Shown: positions 2,487 to 62,143 of the stretch, one piece after another
Layout of the letters: every line of letters starts with the position of its first letter
Numbering within the stretch: the stretch's first letter is position 1
Source of the DNA: a virus
Taxonomy: Duplodnaviria > Caudoviricetes
DNA length: 64,000 nt
IMG/VR virus record: IMGVR_UViG_3300023714_000001
Strand: one strand, 5' to 3'
The notes under the pieces: model-generated
Databases searched by the model: none
What the model saw: the letters and a program-made list of their open reading frames with translations, nothing else
What the model was told of the DNA's origin: nothing
Made by a program: the position numbers and the translations under genes

Positions 2487-2762
2487 TTATGCCGTTACTA
2501 TATCTGCAGCAATTTTATCACAGACTTCGCAGATTTCTTCTTCGGAAGCATCACTCATATTGCCGGGGTCATAGTCGCACACCAGTTCAATACTTTTAAG
2601 AGATTCAGCATCAACACCTTTGCGCGCTAATCTCTTGAGCCAGTAATCCCGCCGAGCAATCTGGACGTCTTCAATCACTCCCCAGTACACGCAGGCGTTG
2701 TAATCCGTATATACTGAAGCGTAGCGGCCCAATAAAAATCTAATCTTATTCATCTTTAACAA
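2487..2762 (-). CDS. Hypothetical protein
   Basis: Operon context. Confidence 0.6.
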   Translation of the reverse strand: MLKMNKIRFLLGRYASVYTDYNACVYWGVIEDVQIARRDYWLKRLARKGVDAESLKSIELVCDYDPGNMSDASEEEICEVCDKIAADIVTA

Positions 2763-2953
2763 CCCTTCTTCTTACTCAAAGCCGTATATACTTTGGTACA
2801 TTTACAGGGTGTTCCTATTCCAAGGAACGGGAAGCAGCCAGTTATTCTCCTGCGTCCATATATTTTACGCAGCGCGCCCGCGGGCGGCTTCTTCCCCTGC
2901 AGACAGTACGAAGCTTTCATTATCTTCTTAGTCTCAACACTCGCGATTATCAT
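2756..2953 (-). CDS. Small basic hypothetical protein
   Basis: AAAGGA RBS, overlaps next gene. Confidence 0.5.
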   Translation of the reverse strand: MIIASVETKKIMKASYCLQGKKPPAGALRKIYGRRRITGCFPFLGIGTPCKCTKVYTALSKKKGC

Positions 2954-2987
2954 GATTCAACTTTCCTTTCTGCTATCCTCATGAGTT

Positions 2988-3845
2988 TCACTTTGCCAGT
3001 TTATAGCAGCTCTCCAAAGAATCGGCGCCGCCAATGAATCCCGTTGCGTGAACGAATATTCCATCCGTAATACCGGCAGCGGCATTAAGTTCTTTATTCC
3101 TAAGACCCTTATACTTCAGTTCATGGTTAAGTTTAAAAGAGCCAATCTTATTCACGCCCTGGATACGATATCCACCATTCTTCATTGGGAACGTAAAGAA
3201 CTTGACTTCTTTTTCTGGGAACCGGTCATTCCACTGCTGACACTCCTTAACGCCATGAGACATATAATGCGGGAAGTTGGCAATACCATCTTCTCCCATC
3301 GCCTTGAATGCTTTAACACATTCCTCATGTTCAGGGGCAGACTTCTTTGCATCATTCAGCATAGAAGCAAAAATATTTGTTGCTATTTCGACAGCAAGCC
3401 GGAACTGCCATATCTGACATATGTCATCGCTAATATCTTCGCTGTTAAGCCAGTGAACAAAACTAAACGGGCTCGGTACACCATCAAAGTCCTGGCCATT
3501 GTCCCTTGCCTGCAGGTCATATAAACCATTGAACAGCAAGACATTTAACTCTTCCTGCGCAAGCTTGCCGTCTTTTACTGCCTGCTTCAGTACCTTGCCT
3601 AAAGCAGACAGATAAATACCGTTGTTATACTGCCAGTCACGGGCAGCACCATGATGGTCAAACTGACCACCGCCAATGTCAATAAGCGTATAACCTTCCT
3701 GACGGGCTTTTTCAATAGCCTCTTCATCACGAGCAGGGATACGGATGACGCTTTTAGGTTCGCCATATAAAACATTGATGACCGCATTGGCGGTTACTTC
3801 GTCCGGATGAATAACGCTATCATGTACAGCTACTTTCTCAAACAT
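2988..3845 (-). CDS. MYG1 (UPF0160) family metal-dependent hydrolase/exonuclease
   Basis: Motifs HDSVIHPDE, IDIGGGQFDHH, DGIFVHATGFIGG match the MYG1 HxGxFHxDE / DxG..FDHH / FxHxxGFIG pattern. Confidence 0.85.
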   Translation of the reverse strand: MFEKVAVHDSVIHPDEVTANAVINVLYGEPKSVIRIPARDEEAIEKARQEGYTLIDIGGGQFDHHGAARDWQYNNGIYLSALGKVLKQAVKDGKLAQEELNVLLFNGLYDLQARDNGQDFDGVPSPFSFVHWLNSEDISDDICQIWQFRLAVEIATNIFASMLNDAKKSAPEHEECVKAFKAMGEDGIANFPHYMSHGVKECQQWNDRFPEKEVKFFTFPMKNGGYRIQGVNKIGSFKLNHELKYKGLRNKELNAAAGITDGIFVHATGFIGGADSLESCYKLAK

Positions 3846-3883
3846 AATATATCAATCTCCTTTTCTTACTTACACACATACAG

Positions 3884-4648
3884 TTAGTTATCTGTCTCGA
3901 TAAGCAACGGTTTTGATCTTACTGTGATGTAACACCAGCACCAACTGCTGTACCGGAACTTAAAACTATCGCCAGACCATTTCGGCGGCTCATTTTCATA
4001 ATGCCCGCTGCAGCATTTCCATACGTTATCGATAATTTTCTTTACTGTCTTATCTTCTACACTATCAATATGATGGCTAGAGATAAAGTTCTGTCTCGTA
4101 AAGTGGTCATTTTTTGGCGCCTCTGTATTATGCCATCTGAACACAACTGTAACCAGGTACTTAGCATTTTTGTTGTAGTTGTCTTCATTGATGTAACTCA
4201 GCTGATGCCGATGGGATTCACTGAGCCGGTAAAATGAGTCTTCGTACTCTACCATGTGCCCGATATAACATACCTGTTCTTTATCAGACAGCCTTGAGAA
4301 CTCTTCCAGAAATACGTCCGCATTAGCAAGTACACGAAATGGCATTTCTTCACAGACATGCCAAATTACGCCTTGGAACTCTTCCCGCCAGTTATCTTTA
4401 ACCAGCTGATAGAAGAGCTGCTTCCTCGTCATCTTCTCCGGCGCGTCTTTGCTGTTATCTTTTTCCGCGCGCTGCTTTTTGTATACGAATGGTTCAAACT
4501 CAACCCAGGCTGTATCCAAACAGCTTGAATCTCTTACACACTTAATTTTATAGCTGTCAGGAATATTATCCTCATTCCTCATGACACCTTCAACATCTTT
4601 GTTGGGGTCGCATTTTGCTAACTCACGTATCAGTTCATATACTTTCAT
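3884..4648 (-). CDS. Hypothetical protein
   Basis: N-terminal MKVYELIRELAKCDPNKDV motif common in phage ORFans. Confidence 0.7.
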   Translation of the reverse strand: MKVYELIRELAKCDPNKDVEGVMRNEDNIPDSYKIKCVRDSSCLDTAWVEFEPFVYKKQRAEKDNSKDAPEKMTRKQLFYQLVKDNWREEFQGVIWHVCEEMPFRVLANADVFLEEFSRLSDKEQVCYIGHMVEYEDSFYRLSESHRHQLSYINEDNYNKNAKYLVTVVFRWHNTEAPKNDHFTRQNFISSHHIDSVEDKTVKKIIDNVWKCCSGHYENEPPKWSGDSFKFRYSSWCWCYITVRSKPLLIETDN

Positions 4649-4660
4649 GGTCTTATCCCT

Positions 4661-4849
4661 TCATACGCTTACATAACTCATTCTCTGTTTAAGGTCGCGG
4701 AAAATTCTTTTCAGCTTGTCATTTTCCTCCTGCAGCTCATCACATCTGCGCAGCTTGCAGTATATTTTGAAGGCCTCATTGCCTGACAAGGTAATTTCTT
4801 TAGCACTGGCCATACAATCTTGTAGCTCATCAATTTTTCGCGCATTCAT
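4661..4849 (-). CDS. Small hypothetical protein
   Basis: Operon context. Confidence 0.55.
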   Translation of the reverse strand: MNARKIDELQDCMASAKEITLSGNEAFKIYCKLRRCDELQEENDKLKRIFRDLKQRMSYVSV

Positions 4850-6334: not shown

Positions 6335-7582
6335 ATATCTGCCTTACACCTCACTTGTGGCTATTCTCTTCTTCACTGCTAAGATAAATGAAAGAATACC
6401 TTCTTACTTACTTCTTACACATAATATACACGTTAAAACCCCTCATTGTCAAGAAGGGTGTGTACAAAATTCTATAGAGCTTGTAATTAAGGAAAAATAT
6501 TTTCTGGTCTTAACGTGCTTTCCTTGTCTCTGGGCTACGCCCTATAGGGTTCCAACCTTGTATTTGTGGGCGGAGCAGCGTTGTATGTGCGTGGGGAGAG
6601 CTACTGCCTTGCGGAGCGACGCGTTTGTACATGTGCGCGATATGCGGCTCTATATGGCTTCATGTAGCTCTATGTAGCTTTGTATTTGTGGGGCGAGCCA
6701 GGTACAACTCCTAACATAAGGTAAAAAATTACCTATTTTGCAAAAACGAAGCCGGTTTTACTTTACGATTTTGCACACCTCGCATGTCATATGCGCAAGA
6801 AAGGCGCATAATCTCGTGTGAAAAGCGTGTACAACACGGCTTCCCAAATTGGCCGTTTTAAGCCATCTGTGAGCGTTTTCTTATCTTCGACGCCGTTTCG
6901 GAAAATTTTCTCTTCAAATGCACTGGAGAGGCCTTTTGAGGCCACTGAGGAGCATTTTTGAAGTCGTTTTCTCAGAGCTGTTTTTAGCTCTTCCTTTTCC
7001 TTTCTCTTCCCTTCTTACTTGCGTCTCATATAAGCATATCACTCATATATTGGCTTAGGGTTTTTGGTATGCCTCTCCGCAAATATATCTGTATATTTGA
7101 CCCTGGAGTACCACATCTCGTACTGCAGAATTTTGCAAAAGTGTAAACCTGCTTTGGGAAAAGTGTTATTTTCCTCTAGGTGGTAAATAAATAATTTTCC
7201 CTGACTTTGGCCTCCTGTATTATAGTTACAATACTATTGTATTTATACAGTATACCTAGTTTACACTCTTGAAAAATTGTGCGCTTCGCGCTGTGGGCTT
7301 TCCCCATGTTTATGCTTTAAGGGGAATACTCCTGCATGGGTATGTCAGGCATAAATAAGCTGCGCTCATAAGGTCTAAGTGATCTTATACAACTTATAGG
7401 GGATAATATATACGCTATTTTAAGGAGACCTGAATGGTCCCGTAAAATTTTGGCGCGCATATATGTTTGCCGGCTCGCTTACGCTCGCCGGCTTTTTGTA
7501 TCGTATATGGGCCTTTATTTACACATTATGTATTTCCCGTATGGGGATACGAGAAAATAATTTGCGGCCTTATACGTGCATT
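6335..7582. other. Long non-coding region, candidate replication origin/centromere region
   Basis: About 1.2 kb with no credible ORF; AT-rich tract, TTGTATTTGTGGG direct repeat (about 6558 and 6680), GAA mini-hairpins, parS-like palindrome at 7417-7448. Confidence 0.4.
7417..7448. promoter_or_regulatory. Second, degenerate parS-like palindrome
   Basis: ATTTTAAGGAGACC-TGAAT-GGTCCCGTAAAAT has the same GACC-N5-GGTCCC core as the inverted repeat upstream of parA. Confidence 0.45.
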
Positions 7583-35566: not shown

Positions 35567-36973
35567 TTGGCAGTTAGTTATGTTGGGGTAAATAAGGAAT
35601 TTGCAGGGGCGTGGCAAGACTCTGGTATGACCGAACTTCTTTCTGGTCAAGGAATGAGCGACAAGGAGATTAATCGGGTTATACGCAAGGCGAGCCGTAA
35701 TCATTGGGATTCGGAAGAGCAGACCGCTAAAGAGTTTGTTGGTGATGTGAAGAAACTCGTAGGTGGAGATGCGTTCTATAAAGACGATTATGGAAGCCTT
35801 TTCAGGGGTACATCACTCGAAGGTACAATTAACAGTATGCATACTCCTACCGCAGCGGAAAGATTAGATAATTATGCGCAAAACTACGATGTGAAAAACG
35901 GCATGTATACCGATGCTCAAATAAAAAGCATCAATAGGCGCATAAACAAATTGAATGGTGTTAAAAACACTGGCTCTCAATATACGGAACAAATGCAGGC
36001 AGAGTCAGAAATGAATCGAACGATACATGCCGCCGAACAAAGAAGAAATGCAAAAGAGAATTTATGGGGACAACAAGAAGCATCCGCTGAGCAATTAGCC
36101 GCAGAAGATAATTTGCGTGACTCCATAAGACATGGCGTAGACGATTCTACTGTTAGTACCCCAAAGAGACAATTGCGCAGACAAAGTGGTATGAAAGGGC
36201 GAAAACTTGACCTTGTTAATTGGGGGGAAGATGCAAAGACGCCCCAAACACCCACAGCTGTTCAAAAACAAATTGACAGTATGGTTGGGGCACCACACAG
36301 CGCAGCAAACAAGATGATTGCGGAAAAGATGGAACAGAGAGGAAAAACCTCTGTTTATAACGTGATGTCTCGTATGGATCGGCTACGCTCAAAGATCGAT
36401 CGAATCGATAACGCGGATCGAGAAACGTTACAAAGAAGTTTCTCCGAAGCTCATCTAAATGACATTTCCAAAAAAGCCAGTCACTTCACATTAAAGGAAA
36501 ATATGGCTAATAAGCTAGGGTATGTAAAAGCCGCCGCAAAAAACGTTACTGACTTCTTTATCGGAGGAAATACCGGTGGCGGACATATTCGTGCTCACAG
36601 AGAAAGTATCCAGCGTAAAATCGAGGAACGAGAAATGGATATGATGCGCGAGCAAAAGAAAGCTCCGCTTCAGAAAAGCATGGATAACCATCAGAAGCTA
36701 TTAGACAGAATTAATAATGGGGATAACGAAGCGTTACAGGCAACCCAAACTAAACGAGGAACCAGACAAATTTTAGCGCAAGACTGTATAGAAAAGCGCG
36801 CAGCGGCTAAAGCCGAACAAATGGCCAGCAAAGGCTTGGGCTGGAAAGGTAAGGCCGGTGCTGTAGCAGGTCTACTTGCTCTTGGCGGTATTATCGGTAA
36901 TCAGTTCGCGGGCGGCCATAAATCTAATGCCGAGCTCTACAACCCCAACCCGCAGCCACAATATTACAGCTAA
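35567..36973 (+). CDS. Helical protein with C-terminal hydrophobic segment
   Basis: GGAGGTG RBS, TTG start. Confidence 0.7.
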   Translation: MAVSYVGVNKEFAGAWQDSGMTELLSGQGMSDKEINRVIRKASRNHWDSEEQTAKEFVGDVKKLVGGDAFYKDDYGSLFRGTSLEGTINSMHTPTAAERLDNYAQNYDVKNGMYTDAQIKSINRRINKLNGVKNTGSQYTEQMQAESEMNRTIHAAEQRRNAKENLWGQQEASAEQLAAEDNLRDSIRHGVDDSTVSTPKRQLRRQSGMKGRKLDLVNWGEDAKTPQTPTAVQKQIDSMVGAPHSAANKMIAEKMEQRGKTSVYNVMSRMDRLRSKIDRIDNADRETLQRSFSEAHLNDISKKASHFTLKENMANKLGYVKAAAKNVTDFFIGGNTGGGHIRAHRESIQRKIEEREMDMMREQKKAPLQKSMDNHQKLLDRINNGDNEALQATQTKRGTRQILAQDCIEKRAAAKAEQMASKGLGWKGKAGAVAGLLALGGIIGNQFAGGHKSNAELYNPNPQPQYYS

Positions 36974-37101: not shown

Positions 37102-37695
37102 GTGAACCCGCATCAACACTCACATGGCGGTGCCCGCCCCGGTGCAGGCAGGCCAAAAAAGAAAGCGCGTGACTTACAGAAAACACATAGCATCCGGGCT
37201 ACAGATAAAGACTGGAAGGAAATTCAATTGGCGGCCAGAACCATCAAGACGTGTTCTTCCATAGATAAACGCCCACGCATTTTTATGCTCACTGACGATG
37301 AACAAGATAAGGTAAACCAATTCCTTCTAAATGGACTTATCGAGGCTTGGCAAAATGCGCGTTGGGGTGAACCAGATACTACACCTCCACCCCAGCCACC
37401 TCTACTACAGGAACAAAAAGAAATAGAGATAACAAAGCCTCGCAATTTTAGCGAGGAAGAAGCAGTATCTATATTTCTTGAATACTATCGGACTAACCCT
37501 ATCGAGTCCATGTCTCTCATTCAAAGCAAACTTGAGCAAGAACAGCGAATTCGTGAAGCCAGAGAACGGCGGCAGCGGCAATCGGCAACAATGGATAAGT
37601 TCGATGAGAGAATGCAGAATGCTATGGACTCTATCGATGATATAAATGAACGCATAGCAAAGATGTTACAATTTCCTGGAGCCGGTACGAAATAA
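37102..37695 (+). CDS. DNA-binding protein (HGGARPGAGRPK motif plus RHH-like segment)
   Basis: GGAGGTGA RBS, GTG start; own promoter TTGCAT-18-TAAAAT with extended TG at 37050-37079. Confidence 0.65.
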   Translation: MNPHQHSHGGARPGAGRPKKKARDLQKTHSIRATDKDWKEIQLAARTIKTCSSIDKRPRIFMLTDDEQDKVNQFLLNGLIEAWQNARWGEPDTTPPPQPPLLQEQKEIEITKPRNFSEEEAVSIFLEYYRTNPIESMSLIQSKLEQEQRIREARERRQRQSATMDKFDERMQNAMDSIDDINERIAKMLQFPGAGTK

Positions 37696-37816
37696 TATCG
37701 TATCGGCTCTTTTTATGTCTGACAATAGGGCAAATAAATACACATTGCCGGTAATACGGGGAATGAGTTCCTTAATAGCCATTCCCCTTTTCGTAGTGCT
37801 ATGGAGGAAAACTTCT

Positions 37817-40800
37817 TTGGATGAACGTAAGAAAATCAAGCTGCAACAGGCGGCAGCGATTTTAAAAAATCCGGTACTCTGGGCTAAAGCTTGTGTAAAA
37901 ACAGTGGATAATGCCACAAAACAAGTAGTACCTTGGGAAGCCAGATGGTATCAGAAAGAGATGCTTCTGGATAACTCTATAAAAAAAGTTGCTCGATGTG
38001 GGCGACGAACGGGTGGCACTCTGCCCGTCCCCGACAAATTGCTGGAATACCTGGCGGCACATCATAAAAAACGTCAGGGGAATCAGCAGCGAACCTTATA
38101 TTATATAAGGACGTTCAGAGACTAGACGCGGGGTCTGATTGTCTTGTAATCAGTTAAATAAAAAGGGGAATGCAGGATGATTTTTGAAACTAAGCGCAAT
38201 GTAGTTAACAACGTATTTTCCGTAGAAATCTCTTTCGCCGGCTACGGCACAGATGAGATGGACGAAAAGCACGAACAGGCTCTCTTTAATGACCTGGGCA
38301 ATCCGGTTATCAATCTGGGTGCAATCGTGTTCGAAGGCCGCTTTGATGTTGATGGGGACAAGCGTGTTGTTCCCGCAGAAGGCGAAAACGGCGACGTTGT
38401 TAAGTTTATCCAGAATGTAAAACGCTATGAACTTGCTCCGGGCTTTGTTGTAAGCTTCAGTGCCGATGCCGGCGATGTTGCAAAGTCTGAGCTTGGCGAA
38501 AAACTCAACACGGCTCGTCTCGTAGCTGAAGCAAAGGCTCTGCTCTTCCAGCAGAAGGTACATGAAGCTATCAAGGCTGTCGTTGAGGAGCTGAAAGCGC
38601 AGCGCACCCGTTTTGAAACGGAGACTGTTGCCACTCTCACTGTCTAATAGGGGGTGCTTGCGATATGAAGCTGAAATACGATTATGTCGTGAAGAAGCGG
38701 AAGATTACCATAGAGCTCGAGACTGTGGATTTCACAAACAAGGAAATTCGTGCTCTCGAAATGCTTGGCGAACCGGTAATCAACTTTCAAAAAACATATC
38801 CGGGCGGATTTACCATTGCTTTGTCCAAGAAACTGCGCAGCGAGTTTAAGGCCCGCATTCGCATTGACGGGACAAATGATGTAGAGGCAGCCAATGAGGC
38901 TGGCCAAAAATTCCTCGCGGATATCAAGGAGCTTCTCGAGCTTGAAATGGAAAAACTGATGGACTCTTACGAAGATCAGGTTTTCCCGCCGATGCACGGC
39001 AAGCTCGACATTTCGGAATATAAATAATCCGTAAATATTAAATTCAAGACAATCGGAAAGGGATAGTCCTGGCCGGAGTTTTTATTTCCGGCTTGAAGAC
39101 CGAAACCATGTGCATAGATTCATTGCACAAGGCTTGCACTAATCGCTCGTTTGTATGCCTGTACGCAGCACCGTATGAGGTTCAGATACGAGCGATTTTT
39201 AACCGTTTGAACGAACTTATTTCTCTTTCCCCTGCTCTGCAGGCTATGGTAGTTTCCAATACAAAAACACCATTTGAAATTAAGTTCAATAACGGTTCTG
39301 CAATACGTGGCCAGACCACAGGCGCATCGTCGGGCGGCGGCGCTGTAGGGTTTCGTGGCCAGAGGGCTGACGCCCTTTACTTGGATGAATCTGACTATAT
39401 GAGCAATGCGGATTTTGACTCGATCCTGGCCATTGCGGCCGAACGAGAAGGGATACGTGTATTTCTCTCGAGTACCCCAACCGGCGCGCGTAAGCGTTTC
39501 TGGCAGGCGTGCACAGATCCAAGTATGCATTTTAAGGAATTCCACTATCCATCTACATGTAACCCTCAGTGGGGTCCAAAGATGGAAGAAGAATTCCGTT
39601 CCCAGTTATCTGAGCAAGGTTATATCCATGAAGTTATGGCTGACTTTGGTTCTCAGGAAACCGGTGTATTTGATAAAGATAAAATCGACGCGGCAATGAA
39701 GTTTATGCGGTATGCATATTCTCCTCTCACCTACTCTCAAAAAATGAAGGTAGATGAAAATGGATGGAATGTGGAAATGTATATTCCTCCTGAGAATATG
39801 ACGATAGGCGTATACAAACCAACTAAGCTGCGCACAATGGGAATTGACTGGGATAAGAAAATTAACATATTTTCATTGTATAGACTCTTGGCTTGGTAAT
39901 ACTGGGCCAGGAGGACTGATACAGATTGAAAAAAAATTCTCAAGGCGCAAGAAGACACACAGTAAATGCGGAATATTTTAAAAACATTACTACTCCACAA
40001 CAGGCCTACTGGCTTGGTTTCATAATGGCTGACGGATGTGTTTATCACGGGAGTGATAAGAACTCTTATAGATTACAGATAAATCTATCTGCGGTTGACG
40101 CCGAACATTTGTCAAAATTTAACAAAGCTATAGAATCAGATTATGCCATTATAAGGAAGGCTATACATAATAAGAAAACAGGAAAAGATTACGAAGTTGT
40201 ACAATTAAAAATTAACTGTACACAAATGTGTAAAGATTTAATCGCCTTAAATGTGACTCCTAAAAAGTCTTTAACATGTGAATTTCCTGACTTAGACCAG
40301 TCGTTATTGCCTCACTATTTGCGGGGGTATTTTGACGGCGACGGATGTATTACGGAAAGTAAAGGCAAATGGCATATATCTATTGTTGGTGGTGAACCTA
40401 TGCTTCGTTCACTCCAAGACTATTTGGTTGATAATGATATATCATCCGCGATATACCAAATCAATCATTCAAAAGCCGTATCACTGGAGATTAGTAATTT
40501 AAAAAGTATTTCACGCTTCTACAAATTAATATATGAAGAGGCGGATGTCCTTCTTGAGCGAAAATATGAGAAGTTTGCAGCATTTAATTTGTCCCGCCAC
40601 ACAGGAATGTGTGGGCAATAATCAGGTAAATTGCTGGAATGCGTATGCTGCGCGAGAATCAGCAGCCAAGCCCGATTTATCGGGAAGGTTCAGAGACTAG
40701 AGACCTGATATCCAGACCGGATAATAGTATAGTCCACTTATGTTAAGTGAAATACGGCGCATCATCGTCAATCATTATTCTCGATTATGTGCCTCGCTTT

Positions 40801-41580
40801 GGCCGATTTATGGTAGTGAGAAGAATCGAAGTTCCAAAAGCAGAATACAGCTTCGATAAGGCTGTAAACATGATTATTGAATTAAATAGGGTTTATAACC
40901 CAGCATTTATTTATGCGGATAGAGGGTCCGGCGAATACCAGCTAGAGATGCTGCATAAATACGGGGATCAGCATCCTGAGTCTGGCCTTAAATTAAAAGT
41001 TAAGGGATTCCAGTTCTCGCAAAAGATTCCGGTTATTGATCCCGTTACACACGTTACCGATCAAAAACCAATGAAGCCATTTATGGTGAACCAGTTGAGC
41101 ATGTGTATTGAGCGCAATCAGCTTATCATGTCTCCATTTGACGAGACACTGCATAAGCAGTTGGTCGACTACGAAGTTGTTCGCGTCGGTGCTAACGGCA
41201 ATCCCGTATACACGAGTGTAAACGAACACTTTGTAGATGCTCTGGGTTTAGCGTTCTTAGCATTCGCGCTTGAAATGCCAAATGTTGCTAAGACAATTGA
41301 AGATGTGGACTTTACAGCTCACATGATTAACGGTGAGTCTCCGTTTGCCAAGAGAGACAATGCTCCGACAGGCAAGAACTGGCGGGGCGCATCTAACCCA
41401 TGGAGCAATGCAAGTCTAATGAACGGCACTGTCTCTTATAAAGACGCTCAGGATAAGAGCGATGGGGATCAGCCAAAATTCTTCCGCGCACCACTTGCTG
41501 GTACAGCTGCCAGAAGAAAGAGTAATTGGGGATCCAGAAGAAGCTCGGGTTTTGGCTTTTGTGGAAGATCAATGTTCTGA
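37817..41580 (+). CDS. terL: Terminase large subunit, three exons (37817-38014, 39096-39854, 40750-41580; about 595 aa)
   Basis: Splicing restores Walker A RCGRRTG|KTE and nuclease motif GIDWD|KYGA; Walker B LYLDESDY, SSTPTG, EHFVDAL. Confidence 0.93.
38177..38647 (+). CDS. Intron-borne non-nuclease protein A
   Basis: AAAAGGGG RBS; 156 aa; no LAGLIDADG/HNH/GIY-YIG motif; DLGNPVIN. Confidence 0.85.
   Translation: MIFETKRNVVNNVFSVEISFAGYGTDEMDEKHEQALFNDLGNPVINLGAIVFEGRFDVDGDKRVVPAEGENGDVVKFIQNVKRYELAPGFVVSFSADAGDVAKSELGEKLNTARLVAEAKALLFQQKVHEAIKAVVEELKAQRTRFETETVATLTV
38665..39027 (+). CDS. Intron-borne non-nuclease protein B (paralog of A)
   Basis: AGGGGGTG RBS; 120 aa; MLGEPVIN. Confidence 0.85.
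   Translation: MKLKYDYVVKKRKITIELETVDFTNKEIRALEMLGEPVINFQKTYPGGFTIALSKKLRSEFKARIRIDGTNDVEAANEAGQKFLADIKELLELEMEKLMDSYEDQVFPPMHGKLDISEYK
39855..40749 (+). ncRNA. Group I intron 2 in terL, with homing endonuclease gene in the P1 loop
   Basis: Exon GGGAU pairs with IGS GUCCC 40591-95; P3 ATCAGGT/ACCTGAT; P 40628, Q 40657, R 40688, S 40728; omega G40749. Confidence 0.93.
39926..40621 (+). CDS. LAGLIDADG homing endonuclease
   Basis: AYWLGFIMADG and YLRGYFDGDG double motif. Confidence 0.92.
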   Translation: MKKNSQGARRHTVNAEYFKNITTPQQAYWLGFIMADGCVYHGSDKNSYRLQINLSAVDAEHLSKFNKAIESDYAIIRKAIHNKKTGKDYEVVQLKINCTQMCKDLIALNVTPKKSLTCEFPDLDQSLLPHYLRGYFDGDGCITESKGKWHISIVGGEPMLRSLQDYLVDNDISSAIYQINHSKAVSLEISNLKSISRFYKLIYEEADVLLERKYEKFAAFNLSRHTGMCGQ

Positions 41581-60067: not shown

Positions 60068-62143
60068 ATGGCAAATGCAAATAGCTCCACTTACACGAAC
60101 ACCTACACCACTTTTTCAGGTTGCGATATTGTATGCTCCTTCGGTTCTCAGATTATTGGCGAACTGCAGGGCATTAGCTATAGCGTAACAAGAGAAACAT
60201 ATTGACAATATCTAGGCAAAGCAGTATCATAGAGCAAAAGGGATGTGATATTGCGTGACTAGGAAAAAATGGACAATTGAAGATATAGAATATTTAAAAG
60301 CCAACATAGGCAATGCGACATTTGAGGAATTAGCGGAACATTTCTGTGTTTCTCGAAATAGTATTGCTCACAAGGCTAGTAAGCTTGGTATTAGTAGAAA
60401 ATCGTTATCCGGGCAGCTGTGGACCGTAGAAGAAGACAACCTTCTAAGACAACACTTCATCTACGCACCCAAAAATATGCTAGTAAGACTTTTCCCAAAC
60501 AGGACATGGGTGGCAATTTTGCAGCGAGGTCTAAAAACCTTAGGCTTAACGAGAAAAAGTCAAGATAAATACTTTATAAACTACAAAGCACTGTCTAAAT
60601 GGAATGAGTTTACTGCATATCTCTTAGGTTTTACAATGGCTGATGGATATATAAAACGAAATCATGGAGCAAGGCACGAGAACTCCCTTCAATTCGAACT
60701 AGCGGTTTATGATAAAGATATACTTGAGAAAATTGCAAGAAATCTTGATTTTGAAGGCCCGATTACTGAGAGTAAAAGAGGAACTGCAAAGCTTTATATT
60801 TCCAATACAAAGGTATTGGACGATTTAATTGAAAAAGGCGTTCCTGCTACTAACAAAACAATTAACGCTAAATTTCCTCCAAATATACCGAAAGATCTAA
60901 TTAGGCATTTTATCCGAGGACTCTTTGATGGTGACGGAAGCATCTATATTGATGAACAGTCTCCGGTTTTTCAGCTCTTGGGAACAAAAGAACTCCTTTG
61001 TACGATAAAAAACATCTTGCCGCAATTCTTTTCCTCTGTAAATGTTTTGGACCGCTCCAAAAGTGGTGCAAATATATATTGTCTAAAAATAAAAGAGAAA
61101 AAGAAAACATTTCACTTGCTTAATTGGATGTATAACGACTCTACAATATATCTTCAAAGAAAATACGATAAATATTGTCAAATAATTAATTCTCCGTCAT
61201 ACGGGAAACCGTGTGAGGACAGGACGTGAAACCCAGTAAATCCTCAAGAGCTTCGCTTCCACTGCGAGGGATAGACAGAAACCCTCGTGAAGGTAGGGAA
61301 ACCTAGAAATAATTGCGAAGATGAGTCATGCTGAAATAAAAGCCTGCGAAACAGGTGCTAAAACTCATAAACAAGGGATGTTTGGGCTCCTAACCAGAAA
61401 TGGCAAGGTCAAACGACTATGTGGCTGAGAGGCCCGTAAGGGAGGAAGTCCCCCTGAAGTGCGTCCTACCTAAGTCCCGAAAGGGATATGGTAAAGAAGT
61501 AGTCTCCTCTCCAGGATTAAAACCCTGGGCAGAATAAGATTCGGTACAGAGTAACGACCTGTGCGAAGACAAGGAAAAGGCTCCGGTGTACACGATGGGG
61601 TCTGCAAATCCTCGTTCTTTCTCTCGCGGAAAGAGGGGTATCGCAGGTACTCTCGTGTTCGTGGTTTTCGATCATGACGCCCTGCTTAAGGGCTTGGCTG
61701 AACACGTTGAAAGCAACAAGGTGTTCCACCGTATTGGTAAGGATATTAACTGGAAACCGATGACCATTGAAAAGTGGGACGAAGCAATGAAAGATATTGC
61801 TTCTCAGGGCGACAAAGGCACTACCACTAAGTCGGCCGGTTATCGTACCCGGGCAATTTCCCAGCAGGCAGAACCGATTATCGCGGACGAAATACCCCCA
61901 TTCGATATAACCATAAGTATGGCCAACGAATACGGGAAAGCAGCGGTCATGGTGCTGTACGGCGTAGAAATTTTGAATCAGGGCAGCCAGTTCTCTATGG
62001 ATAACATTCAGAGTCAGATGGCCTGCACGTTCGTTGCTTCTCGCCTGAAGTGTCTTGAGGCTGTCGACATGGCAACTGGTAAAACCATTCCTAATGGTAA
62101 TGCTAGTATCGACATGGACGATTACACGACAACCCAGAATTAA
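60068..62143 (+). CDS. Tail tube protein, two exons (about 60068-60193 and 61574-62143; about 231 aa)
   Basis: Exon 1 TFSGCDIV...GELQGISYSVTR plus exon 2 EKAPVYTMGSANPRSFSRGKRGIAGTL; follows sheath. Confidence 0.88.
60202..60230 (+). promoter_or_regulatory. SigmaA promoter inside intron 3
   Basis: TTGACA-17 nt-TATCAT upstream of the homing endonuclease RBS. Confidence 0.7.
60255..61229 (+). CDS. LAGLIDADG homing endonuclease with two N-terminal Myb/HTH-like repeats
   Basis: WTIEDIEYLK and WTVEEDNLLR repeats; AYLLGFTMADG and FIRGLFDGDG. Confidence 0.9.
   Translation: MTRKKWTIEDIEYLKANIGNATFEELAEHFCVSRNSIAHKASKLGISRKSLSGQLWTVEEDNLLRQHFIYAPKNMLVRLFPNRTWVAILQRGLKTLGLTRKSQDKYFINYKALSKWNEFTAYLLGFTMADGYIKRNHGARHENSLQFELAVYDKDILEKIARNLDFEGPITESKRGTAKLYISNTKVLDDLIEKGVPATNKTINAKFPPNIPKDLIRHFIRGLFDGDGSIYIDEQSPVFQLLGTKELLCTIKNILPQFFSSVNVLDRSKSGANIYCLKIKEKKKTFHLLNWMYNDSTIYLQRKYDKYCQIINSPSYGKPCEDRT

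Follow-up and report, generated by a model that had tools for sequence, protein, structure and literature searches.

Phage group I introns are usually described as either free of open reading frames (ORFs) or carriers of a homing endonuclease gene. What, then, are two intact genes without any recognisable endonuclease doing inside a group I intron that splits the terminase gene terL of a tailed phage? The locus lies in a virus record of IMG/VR (IMGVR_UViG_3300023714_000001; Duplodnaviria, Caudoviricetes), of which we analysed one stretch of 64,000 nucleotides, called the window below, corresponding to bases 35911-99910 of the 211-kb record, whose completeness is estimated at 90%; the DNA runs containing the stretch come from animal faeces and gut. 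The reading that we hold to be, on balance, the probable one is that a group I intron (intron 1) interrupts the Walker A codons of terL and carries in its P8 loop two paralogous phage genes, ORF1 and ORF2, that are not homing endonuclease genes. Introns in terL are already known from Bastillevirinae (PMC11878797); what is new here is a strongly constrained, paralogous two-gene cargo in a Walker A intron of terL, with every alternative arrangement still to be seen in living relatives.

The sequence marks the insert between the glycine and lysine codons of Walker A as a genuine group I intron, by which terL is split (coordinates in Table 1). Exon 1 ends in ...ACGGGT at 38014 and P1 places a U.G pair at the 5' splice site, and at the other end exon 2 begins with AAG ACC GAA (KTE) at 39096, directly after the terminal G of the intron at 39095. 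The parts of the catalytic core, namely P3, P4-P6, P7 formed by the R and S elements, and P8, were all found between these ends. The Rfam model RF00028 (Intron_gpI) aligned at 38029-38133 over its positions 49-158 with 32.7 bits (E 1e-5 in a 4.3-kb search), a match that covers P3, P4, P5, P6, the R element as the 5' strand of P7, and P3'. The arms of P8 pair at 13 of 13 positions, one of them a G.U, and enclose 898 nt, and when a tetraloop stands in for the cargo the intron folds P1, P3, P4, P5, P6, P8 and P9 in canonical order at -77.5 kcal/mol. A first-pass annotation made from the letters alone had described this ribozyme, from a P1 with U.G through P3-P9 to the terminal G, as well as the 13-bp P8 enclosing two intact ORFs of 156 and 120 codons with their own ribosome-binding sites, and both descriptions are borne out.

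Comparison of intron 1 in the window and in 11 further lineages with TerL proteins 51-91% identical revealed that the P4, P6, R and S blocks are common to all 12 introns, as is the terminal G, and that exon 1 ends in GGT in each of the 11 other lineages. P8 is retained as a stem of 7-16 bp of unrelated sequence in L001, L032, L033, L004, L006 and L023, the exceptions to this covariation being L020 and L021 with a weak stem; P9 covaries too, its pairing kept by differing sequences. RNAalifold on nine lineages recovered P3, P4, P6 and P9. In L004 the exon has changed from ACGGGT to ACAGGT and the guide to GCCTTT, a compensatory change in which the G-to-A of the exon is accompanied by a C-to-U of the guide (GCCC to GCCT). 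The uninterrupted terL genes of L017 and L022 read RCGRRTGKTETMC directly over the intron 1 junction (GRRTG-KTETMC), and the uninterrupted TerL of the Bacillus jumbo phage 0305phi8-36 also reads G-KTETMC exactly at the junction. As expected where the constraint of the guide is absent, intron-less terL uses other synonymous codons (ACT GGA, ACT GGT) at the positions that form P1. From these features intron 1 would be expected to splice and to join the two halves of Walker A.

The cargo genes are both intact and each is preceded by a GGGG-type ribosome-binding site. Their AlphaFold2 (AF2) models are confident (pLDDT 87.5 for ORF1 and 87.4 for ORF2), with extra strands in ORF1. Searches of Pfam and PHROG returned no family for either protein at E <= 0.1 except phrog_6370 at chance level (E 0.036), and no match to a nuclease family (LAGLIDADG, HNH, GIY-YIG, PD-(D/E)XK, EDxHD, Vsr-like); the LAGLIDADG gene of the second terL intron was readily detected in the same search. 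Neither PADLOC nor a sequence search of the PDB gave a match, tblastn with both ORFs was negative across 50,697 phage records, and no fold match above noise was present in PDB, BFVD or ESM Atlas (Foldseek gave nothing at E <= 0.001; the best VIA Z, 5.0-5.2, is at noise level). A feature search of the ESM Atlas likewise brought up no usable match. Profile searches of the genomes of the cultured phages nearest in TerL, Moorella phage MTATph1 (44% identity) and 0305phi8-36 (31%), revealed no convincing homolog. That the cargo lacks an endonuclease motif, as first annotated, is consistent with all of these searches. Homologs come from metagenomes, where close ones form 21 clusters for ORF1 and 19 for ORF2; an exhaustive profile search places 178 representatives, clustered at 50% identity, in the ORF1 family. 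Across 60 diverse ORF1 homologs Glu33 is the sole invariant polar residue. Homologs of ORF2 have variable Pro-rich tails, and variable internal insertions are also seen in the cargo family.

ORF1 and ORF2 are probably paralogs. The motif E..AL..LG.P.I lies at the same fold position in both, with its Glu invariant in both families, the order of secondary-structure elements is shared, several weak structural neighbours common to the two AF2 models top both lists, and the ORF1 profile gives weak matches to ORF2 homologs (E 0.002 in one search, 5e-6 to 1e-4 in another). The paralogy proposed in the first-pass annotation is borne out in part; hhalign of ORF1 against ORF2 aligned only the E..AL..LG.P.IN motif (P 0.015, probability 3%). 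Prediction of a complex of the two proteins scored 0.00, which weighs neither for nor against binding.

In composition, selection and co-descent, and in lacking a nuclease signature, the cargo is unlike a homing endonuclease gene. The GC fraction at third codon positions (GC3) is 0.50 in ORF1 and 0.57 in ORF2, compared with 0.32-0.33 in the two endonuclease ORFs of the window, and the isoelectric points (pI) are 4.85 and 5.54, compared with 8.6 and 9.4 for the endonucleases. Relative synonymous codon usage (RSCU) correlates with that of a structural gene set (major capsid protein, sheath, portal, protease and a 548-aa protein, p548) at 0.80 for ORF1 and 0.55 for ORF2, the terL exons reaching 0.02-0.43, and with that of the endonucleases at -0.14 and -0.07, respectively. 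Both measures bear out the earlier remark that codon usage resembles that of the capsid and sheath genes and not that of the endonucleases. The ratio of nonsynonymous to synonymous substitution (dN/dS) is 0.04-0.07 for ORF1 and 0.02-0.04 for ORF2, and 0.03-0.08 for terL exons 2 and 3. Identity of the cargo to that of the window falls with that of TerL, from 94% at TerL 89-91% through 67-78% at 68-72% and about 50% at 58% to 27-44% at TerL 51-60%, and the cargo and TerL trees are broadly congruent.

Sporadic presence and frequent decay in close relatives, the habit of homing endonuclease genes, are not shown by ORF1 and ORF2: both are intact in every cargo-carrying locus examined, with no degenerate copy. 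For comparison we used intron 2 of the same terL, an ordinary mobile intron. Intron 1 with its cargo is present in all DNA contigs 95-99% identical to the window. Intron 2, by contrast, is polymorphic among these near-identical phages, being exactly absent in DNA run X3 and lacking its LAGLIDADG gene in runs X7 and X10, where 20 other bases replace that gene. Within the window's own clade, intron 1 and cargo are both fixed, and patchiness of the cargo appears only at 50-60% TerL identity.

A survey of terL relatives in IMG/VR and metagenomes, in which presence or absence of the pair at the metagenome loci L060-L073 was judged near the locus, revealed seven arrangements at the site. The intron with ORF1 and ORF2 (class A) is found in the window and at least 16 further lineages. 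Free-standing homologs beside intron-less terL were also found: in L017-19 and L022/57/84 (class B) there is no intron, and ORF1 and ORF2 stand free between the conserved upstream gene and an uninterrupted terL. A single ORF2-like gene occupies the intron in L097 and L062 (class C) and lies directly upstream of a terL without intron at the Walker A site in L067 and L065 (class D). L073/74 and L089 have an intron of the same family that is 162 or 288 nt long and lacks ORFs, with no pair nearby (class E). L058 carries an intein one codon on, at GK/T (class F), and L060 and L077-83 have neither intron nor detectable homolog (class G). On the TerL tree, L022, with a free pair, is sister to L023, with an intronic pair (support 100/99), and L017 stands elsewhere, so at least two switches between the free-standing and intronic positions are needed. 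L073, with its empty intron, lies near L023 (78% in the C-terminal part of TerL) and has a similar intron core sequence. The 350-nt spacer just upstream of the free ORF1 homolog of L017 contains a RAGATH-18 RNA (2475-2545; 68.9 bits, gathering score 44.9).

These arrangements bear on how the genes came to lie where they do. ORF1 and ORF2 probably belong to a slot for accessory genes that adjoins terL on its 5' side, their genes having moved between a place just upstream of terL and the inside of P8, in either direction. The free and intronic layouts differ only in whether terL exon 1 and the 5' half of the ribozyme precede or follow the genes. A local rearrangement could have carried the first ~66-100 codons of terL and the 5' half of the intron across the genes, and duplication followed by deletion, in either direction, would suffice for such a capture or exit. 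Neither intron remnants around the free-standing pairs of L017 and L022 nor intermediates were found.

Expression of the pair can be framed by its tight fit in the loop. The P8 5' arm lies only 30 nt from the start of ORF1 and the P8 3' arm 17 nt from the stop of ORF2, making a separate promoter outside the ribozyme core unlikely. The TGTAATC ahead of ORF1, previously taken for a near-match to a late motif, is of the kind that chance provides: the window has 11 copies of TGTAAT at a distance of 18-32 nt ahead of an ATG, where 10.8 are expected. The pair would share the terL transcript and be translated, on the precursor or on the excised intron RNA, by way of its own ribosome-binding sites, and the P8 stem would let the ribozyme fold around 898 nt of coding RNA.

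Several observations weigh against, or lend no support to, the reading of intron 1 as a spliced ribozyme housing ordinary phage genes. No Rfam match in intron 1 attained the gathering score (50 bits), which we ascribe to the model being unable to span the 898-nt insert in P8. The single metatranscriptome containing the stretch provided three short contigs, none with a spliced terL junction and one running unspliced from intron 2 into exon 3, a result that speaks neither for nor against splicing. The ORF1 profile found no match in a 265-kb record judged 100% complete, nor in complete or near-complete relatives of 253, 222 and 214 kb, and the introns of L073 and L089 have no ORF and no pair nearby. 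Together with the intron-less loci that have the pair upstream, these cases contradict the earlier claim that the intron could not be lost. The switching between free and intronic positions is a pattern described for homing endonuclease genes (PMC3984707). Neither ORF1 nor ORF2 has homology to any virion protein. In 0305phi8-36, gp115 (159 aa) and gp116 (181 aa) lie in the same position directly upstream of terL, and gp116 is a virion protein by mass spectrometry; the two were considered as counterparts of ORF1 and ORF2 and rejected, homology being undetectable by hhalign.

The alternation between free and intronic positions could mean that ORF1 and ORF2, or an ORF2-like core, are a new homing or mobility protein of unrecognised fold that targets terL near Walker A. 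The free form would then act in collaborative or intron-less homing, and the intronic form would be a gene that invaded an ORF-less intron to make a composite mobile intron, such invasion by a free-standing endonuclease gene being an established model (PMC3984707). The site does hold all the states of an endonuclease intron, that is an empty intron (L073, L089), an ORF-bearing intron, free ORFs, neither, and an intein (L058); the TerL tree demands two or more switches of position; and the family is missing from some complete relatives. Were this explanation true, it would account for the alternation, and the site would show every stage of a composite intron in living lineages. We nevertheless judge it distinctly unlikely. 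No nuclease family, motif or fold was found in either protein, both are acidic, and ORF1 has a single invariant polar residue; they use native codons in the manner of highly expressed genes, unlike the AT-rich endonuclease genes of the same genome, and are as constrained in dN/dS as terL. The cargo diverges in step with TerL, it shows no presence/absence polymorphism among near-identical phages, unlike intron 2, and distant family members lie away from any recognisable terL. An accessory "moron"-type cassette with a part in conflict (for example an acidic DNA mimic, anti-defence or exclusion factor), parked at a permissive site beside or within terL, would suit small acidic proteins that are patchy across the wider clade, and is to our mind the least probable of the alternatives: the codon bias is of the late structural type, purifying selection is very strong and co-descent with terL long and vertical, and the genes lie in the head and packaging module rather than among early accessory genes. 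PADLOC found no match, though it covers host defence and not phage counter-defence.

If the genes are ordinary phage genes, their neighbour suggests a role. The gene directly upstream of terL is the classic position of the small terminase, and the pair might be a small terminase or another terminase partner, its dosage coupled to the expression of terL by its place within the same transcript. Free genes do lie immediately 5' of terL on the same strand (L017, L022, L067, L065), PHROGs recognised no other candidate in the module, and the predicted long C-terminal helix could drive oligomerisation. Position is the one pointer that suggests such a role, and we regard this explanation as unlikely, if less so than the homing and "moron" explanations. 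The proteins match no small-terminase family in Pfam or PHROG and none among the solved structures searched, have no helix-turn-helix and are acidic, and their codon bias, which exceeds that of terL, resembles the bias seen in the most abundant virion proteins. The family is also absent from complete relatives with 50-55% identical TerL, and distant homologs do not lie beside a recognisable terL. On the favoured reading of resident phage genes, our best guess, a weak one, is that ORF1 and ORF2 may be abundant late proteins of virion structure or assembly, given their structural-type codon bias, the module around them, the Pro-rich tails and insertions, and a fusion in L024. Some members of the ORF1 family occur in other contexts without recognisable TerL. 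One such case is L024, a distant phage contig with two ORF1-like genes in tandem (2634-4789), the second of which (549 aa) joins an ORF1-like N-domain to collagen triple-helix repeats that match tail-fibre PHROGs; the contig also carries a gene for a PHROG "virion structural protein". The virion or assembly role first proposed for the pair keeps its backing in codon bias, context and this one collagen-fused distant homolog, and lacks it in homology.

Table 1. Features of the split terL gene and its two introns (window coordinates; a slash marks the splice point)
Feature	Position	Strand	Description
terL exon 1	37715..38014	+	ends ...VARCGRRTG, first half of Walker A
Intron 1 (group I)	38015..39095	+	1081 nt; between Gly and Lys codons of Walker A (ARCGRRTG/KTE)
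Internal guide GCCCGT	38023..38028	+	pairs with exon ACGGGT 38009-38014 to form P1
Ribozyme 5' core	38029..38133	+	P3 38029-33/38129-33; P4 38039-45/38083-89; P5 and P6 hairpins
R element GTTCAGAGACTAGA	38113-26	+	within the 5' core
P8 5' arm	38134..38146	+	pairs with 39045-39057
ORF1	38177..38647	+	156 aa; predicted beta-hairpin, helix, beta-sheet, long C-terminal helix
ORF2	38665..39027	+	120 aa; predicted secondary-structure order as in ORF1
P8 3' arm	39045..39057	+	pairs with 38134-38146
S element GGGATAGTCC	39060-69	+	3' strand of P7; TAGTC at 39064-39068
P9 hairpin	39072-77/39087-92	+	within 39060..39095
terL exon 2	39096..39854	+	KTETMC..., ATPase domain; Pfam Terminase_6N and phrog_2; collinear with uninterrupted TerL
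Intron 2	39855..40749	+	LAGLIDADG endonuclease gene at 39926-40621; Pfam LAGLIDADG_3
terL exon 3	40750..41580	+	nuclease domain

Family searches of the window revealed that the site of intron 1 is surrounded by a head and packaging module. It comprises a 468-aa protein with the C-terminal sequence ...SNAELYNP..., a 238-aa protein encoded upstream of terL exon 1, terL in its three exons, a 593-aa protein with a lysozyme-like domain, and the portal, prohead protease, p548 and major capsid protein, with the tail sheath further on. The gene for the 238-aa protein was tried as a small-terminase candidate and rejected, being absent from the same position in L001, L006 and L017. In all lineages examined, a gene upstream of the terL region encodes a conserved C-terminal motif, approximately G-Q/R-x-S/T-N-A-x-L-Y, after a hydrophobic stretch (window 35567-36973; L017 368-2419; L022 1774-2829; L073 882-2168); it had no family match. 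In the L006 group (L006-L009, 3506-4894) a Rep3-type replication gene lies immediately upstream of terL exon 1, and in one variant of this group an IS605 OrfB/TnpB-like gene is inserted near terL (L008 2131-3354).

The first ATG in the terL frame, at 37715, is abutted by a 13-bp terminator-like hairpin (37678-37710) with a T-run. The true start of terL is probably the TTG at 37817, after a GGAGG ribosome-binding site (both within 37803-37819). Exon 1 would then have 66 codons and not 100, since this start better fits the N-termini of uninterrupted homologs; the alignment of its N-terminus with the TerL of L017, which is uninterrupted, begins at about residue 35.

Other insertions are found in and around terL. 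Intron 2 matches Rfam at 40542-40755 with 41.3 bits. The Walker B codons (LDESD/YM) hold a third intron site, at 39391-39396 of the window, which is itself uninterrupted there; the insert at this site is 1257 nt in X3, and L001 (7263-7660) and L004 (~7282-7557) carry ORF-less inserts of ~280-400 nt. The terL intein of L058 (300-2162) is inserted one codon past the site of intron 1 (GRRTGK/C...VHN/TETM), making the Walker A loop a hotspot for introns and inteins alike, and an intein at this point is probably present in L093 and L065 too (terL ORF of 1049 aa). In the tail-tube region of the window, a second phrog_4645 endonuclease gene occupies 60255-61229 (GC 0.36).

The locus thus presents two ordinary-looking genes under strong selection inside a ribozyme. 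The series of arrangements makes testable how genes enter or leave intron loops, and whether host genes can be housed in a ribozyme that acts as a neutral or a regulatory container. A protein family is delimited as well: it has ~178 clusters at 50% identity, is found in phage head and packaging modules, and has a confidently predicted fold that matches nothing solved. For annotation, terL is split in these phages, and the small genes between its pieces should not be called terminase fragments.

Among known systems, we compared intron 1 with the homing-endonuclease introns of phages, taking T4 td with I-TevI, the SPO1 DNA polymerase intron with I-HmuI in P8, and the terL introns of Bastillevirinae (PMC11878797; PMC3073962 Table 1). 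As in these, a ribozyme of the same kind interrupts the conserved ATP-binding motif of an essential gene and bears an ORF insert with its own ribosome-binding site in P8, intron 2 being an ordinary example. Unlike in these, the cargo of intron 1 consists of two paralogs without endonuclease signature, with native codons and a dN/dS as low as that of terL, it is fixed in close relatives, and its homologs behave as ordinary neighbours of terL. In collaborative homing, as summarised in PMC3984707 (citing Zeng et al. 2009 and Bonocora and Shub 2009), a free-standing endonuclease gene lies next to an ORF-less intron. Our case resembles this system and endonuclease invasion of introns in that the same genes stand free beside the target or within the intron, and that ORF-less versions of the intron exist; it differs in that nothing indicates DNA cutting by ORF1 or ORF2, and in that the genes co-diverge with terL and do not spread sporadically. 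Within jumbo phages, the report on AR9 (PMC5312081) describes g190 as lying in an intron of another gene and as expressed independently, with an early promoter of its own. The window phage shares with AR9, so described, a gene inside the intron of another gene, but a promoter for its cargo would find no space outside the ribozyme core, and the codon bias of the cargo suggests late, high expression. Outside phages, the rnl gene of fungal mitochondria has a group I intron, mL2449, in which rps3 resides, and there, as here, a resident gene that is not an endonuclease is inherited together with its group I intron. Fungal rps3 is a single cargo of known function in an organelle rRNA gene, whereas intron 1 lies in a protein-coding phage gene and carries two genes, and in the relatives of the window phage the free and the intronic arrangements both survive.

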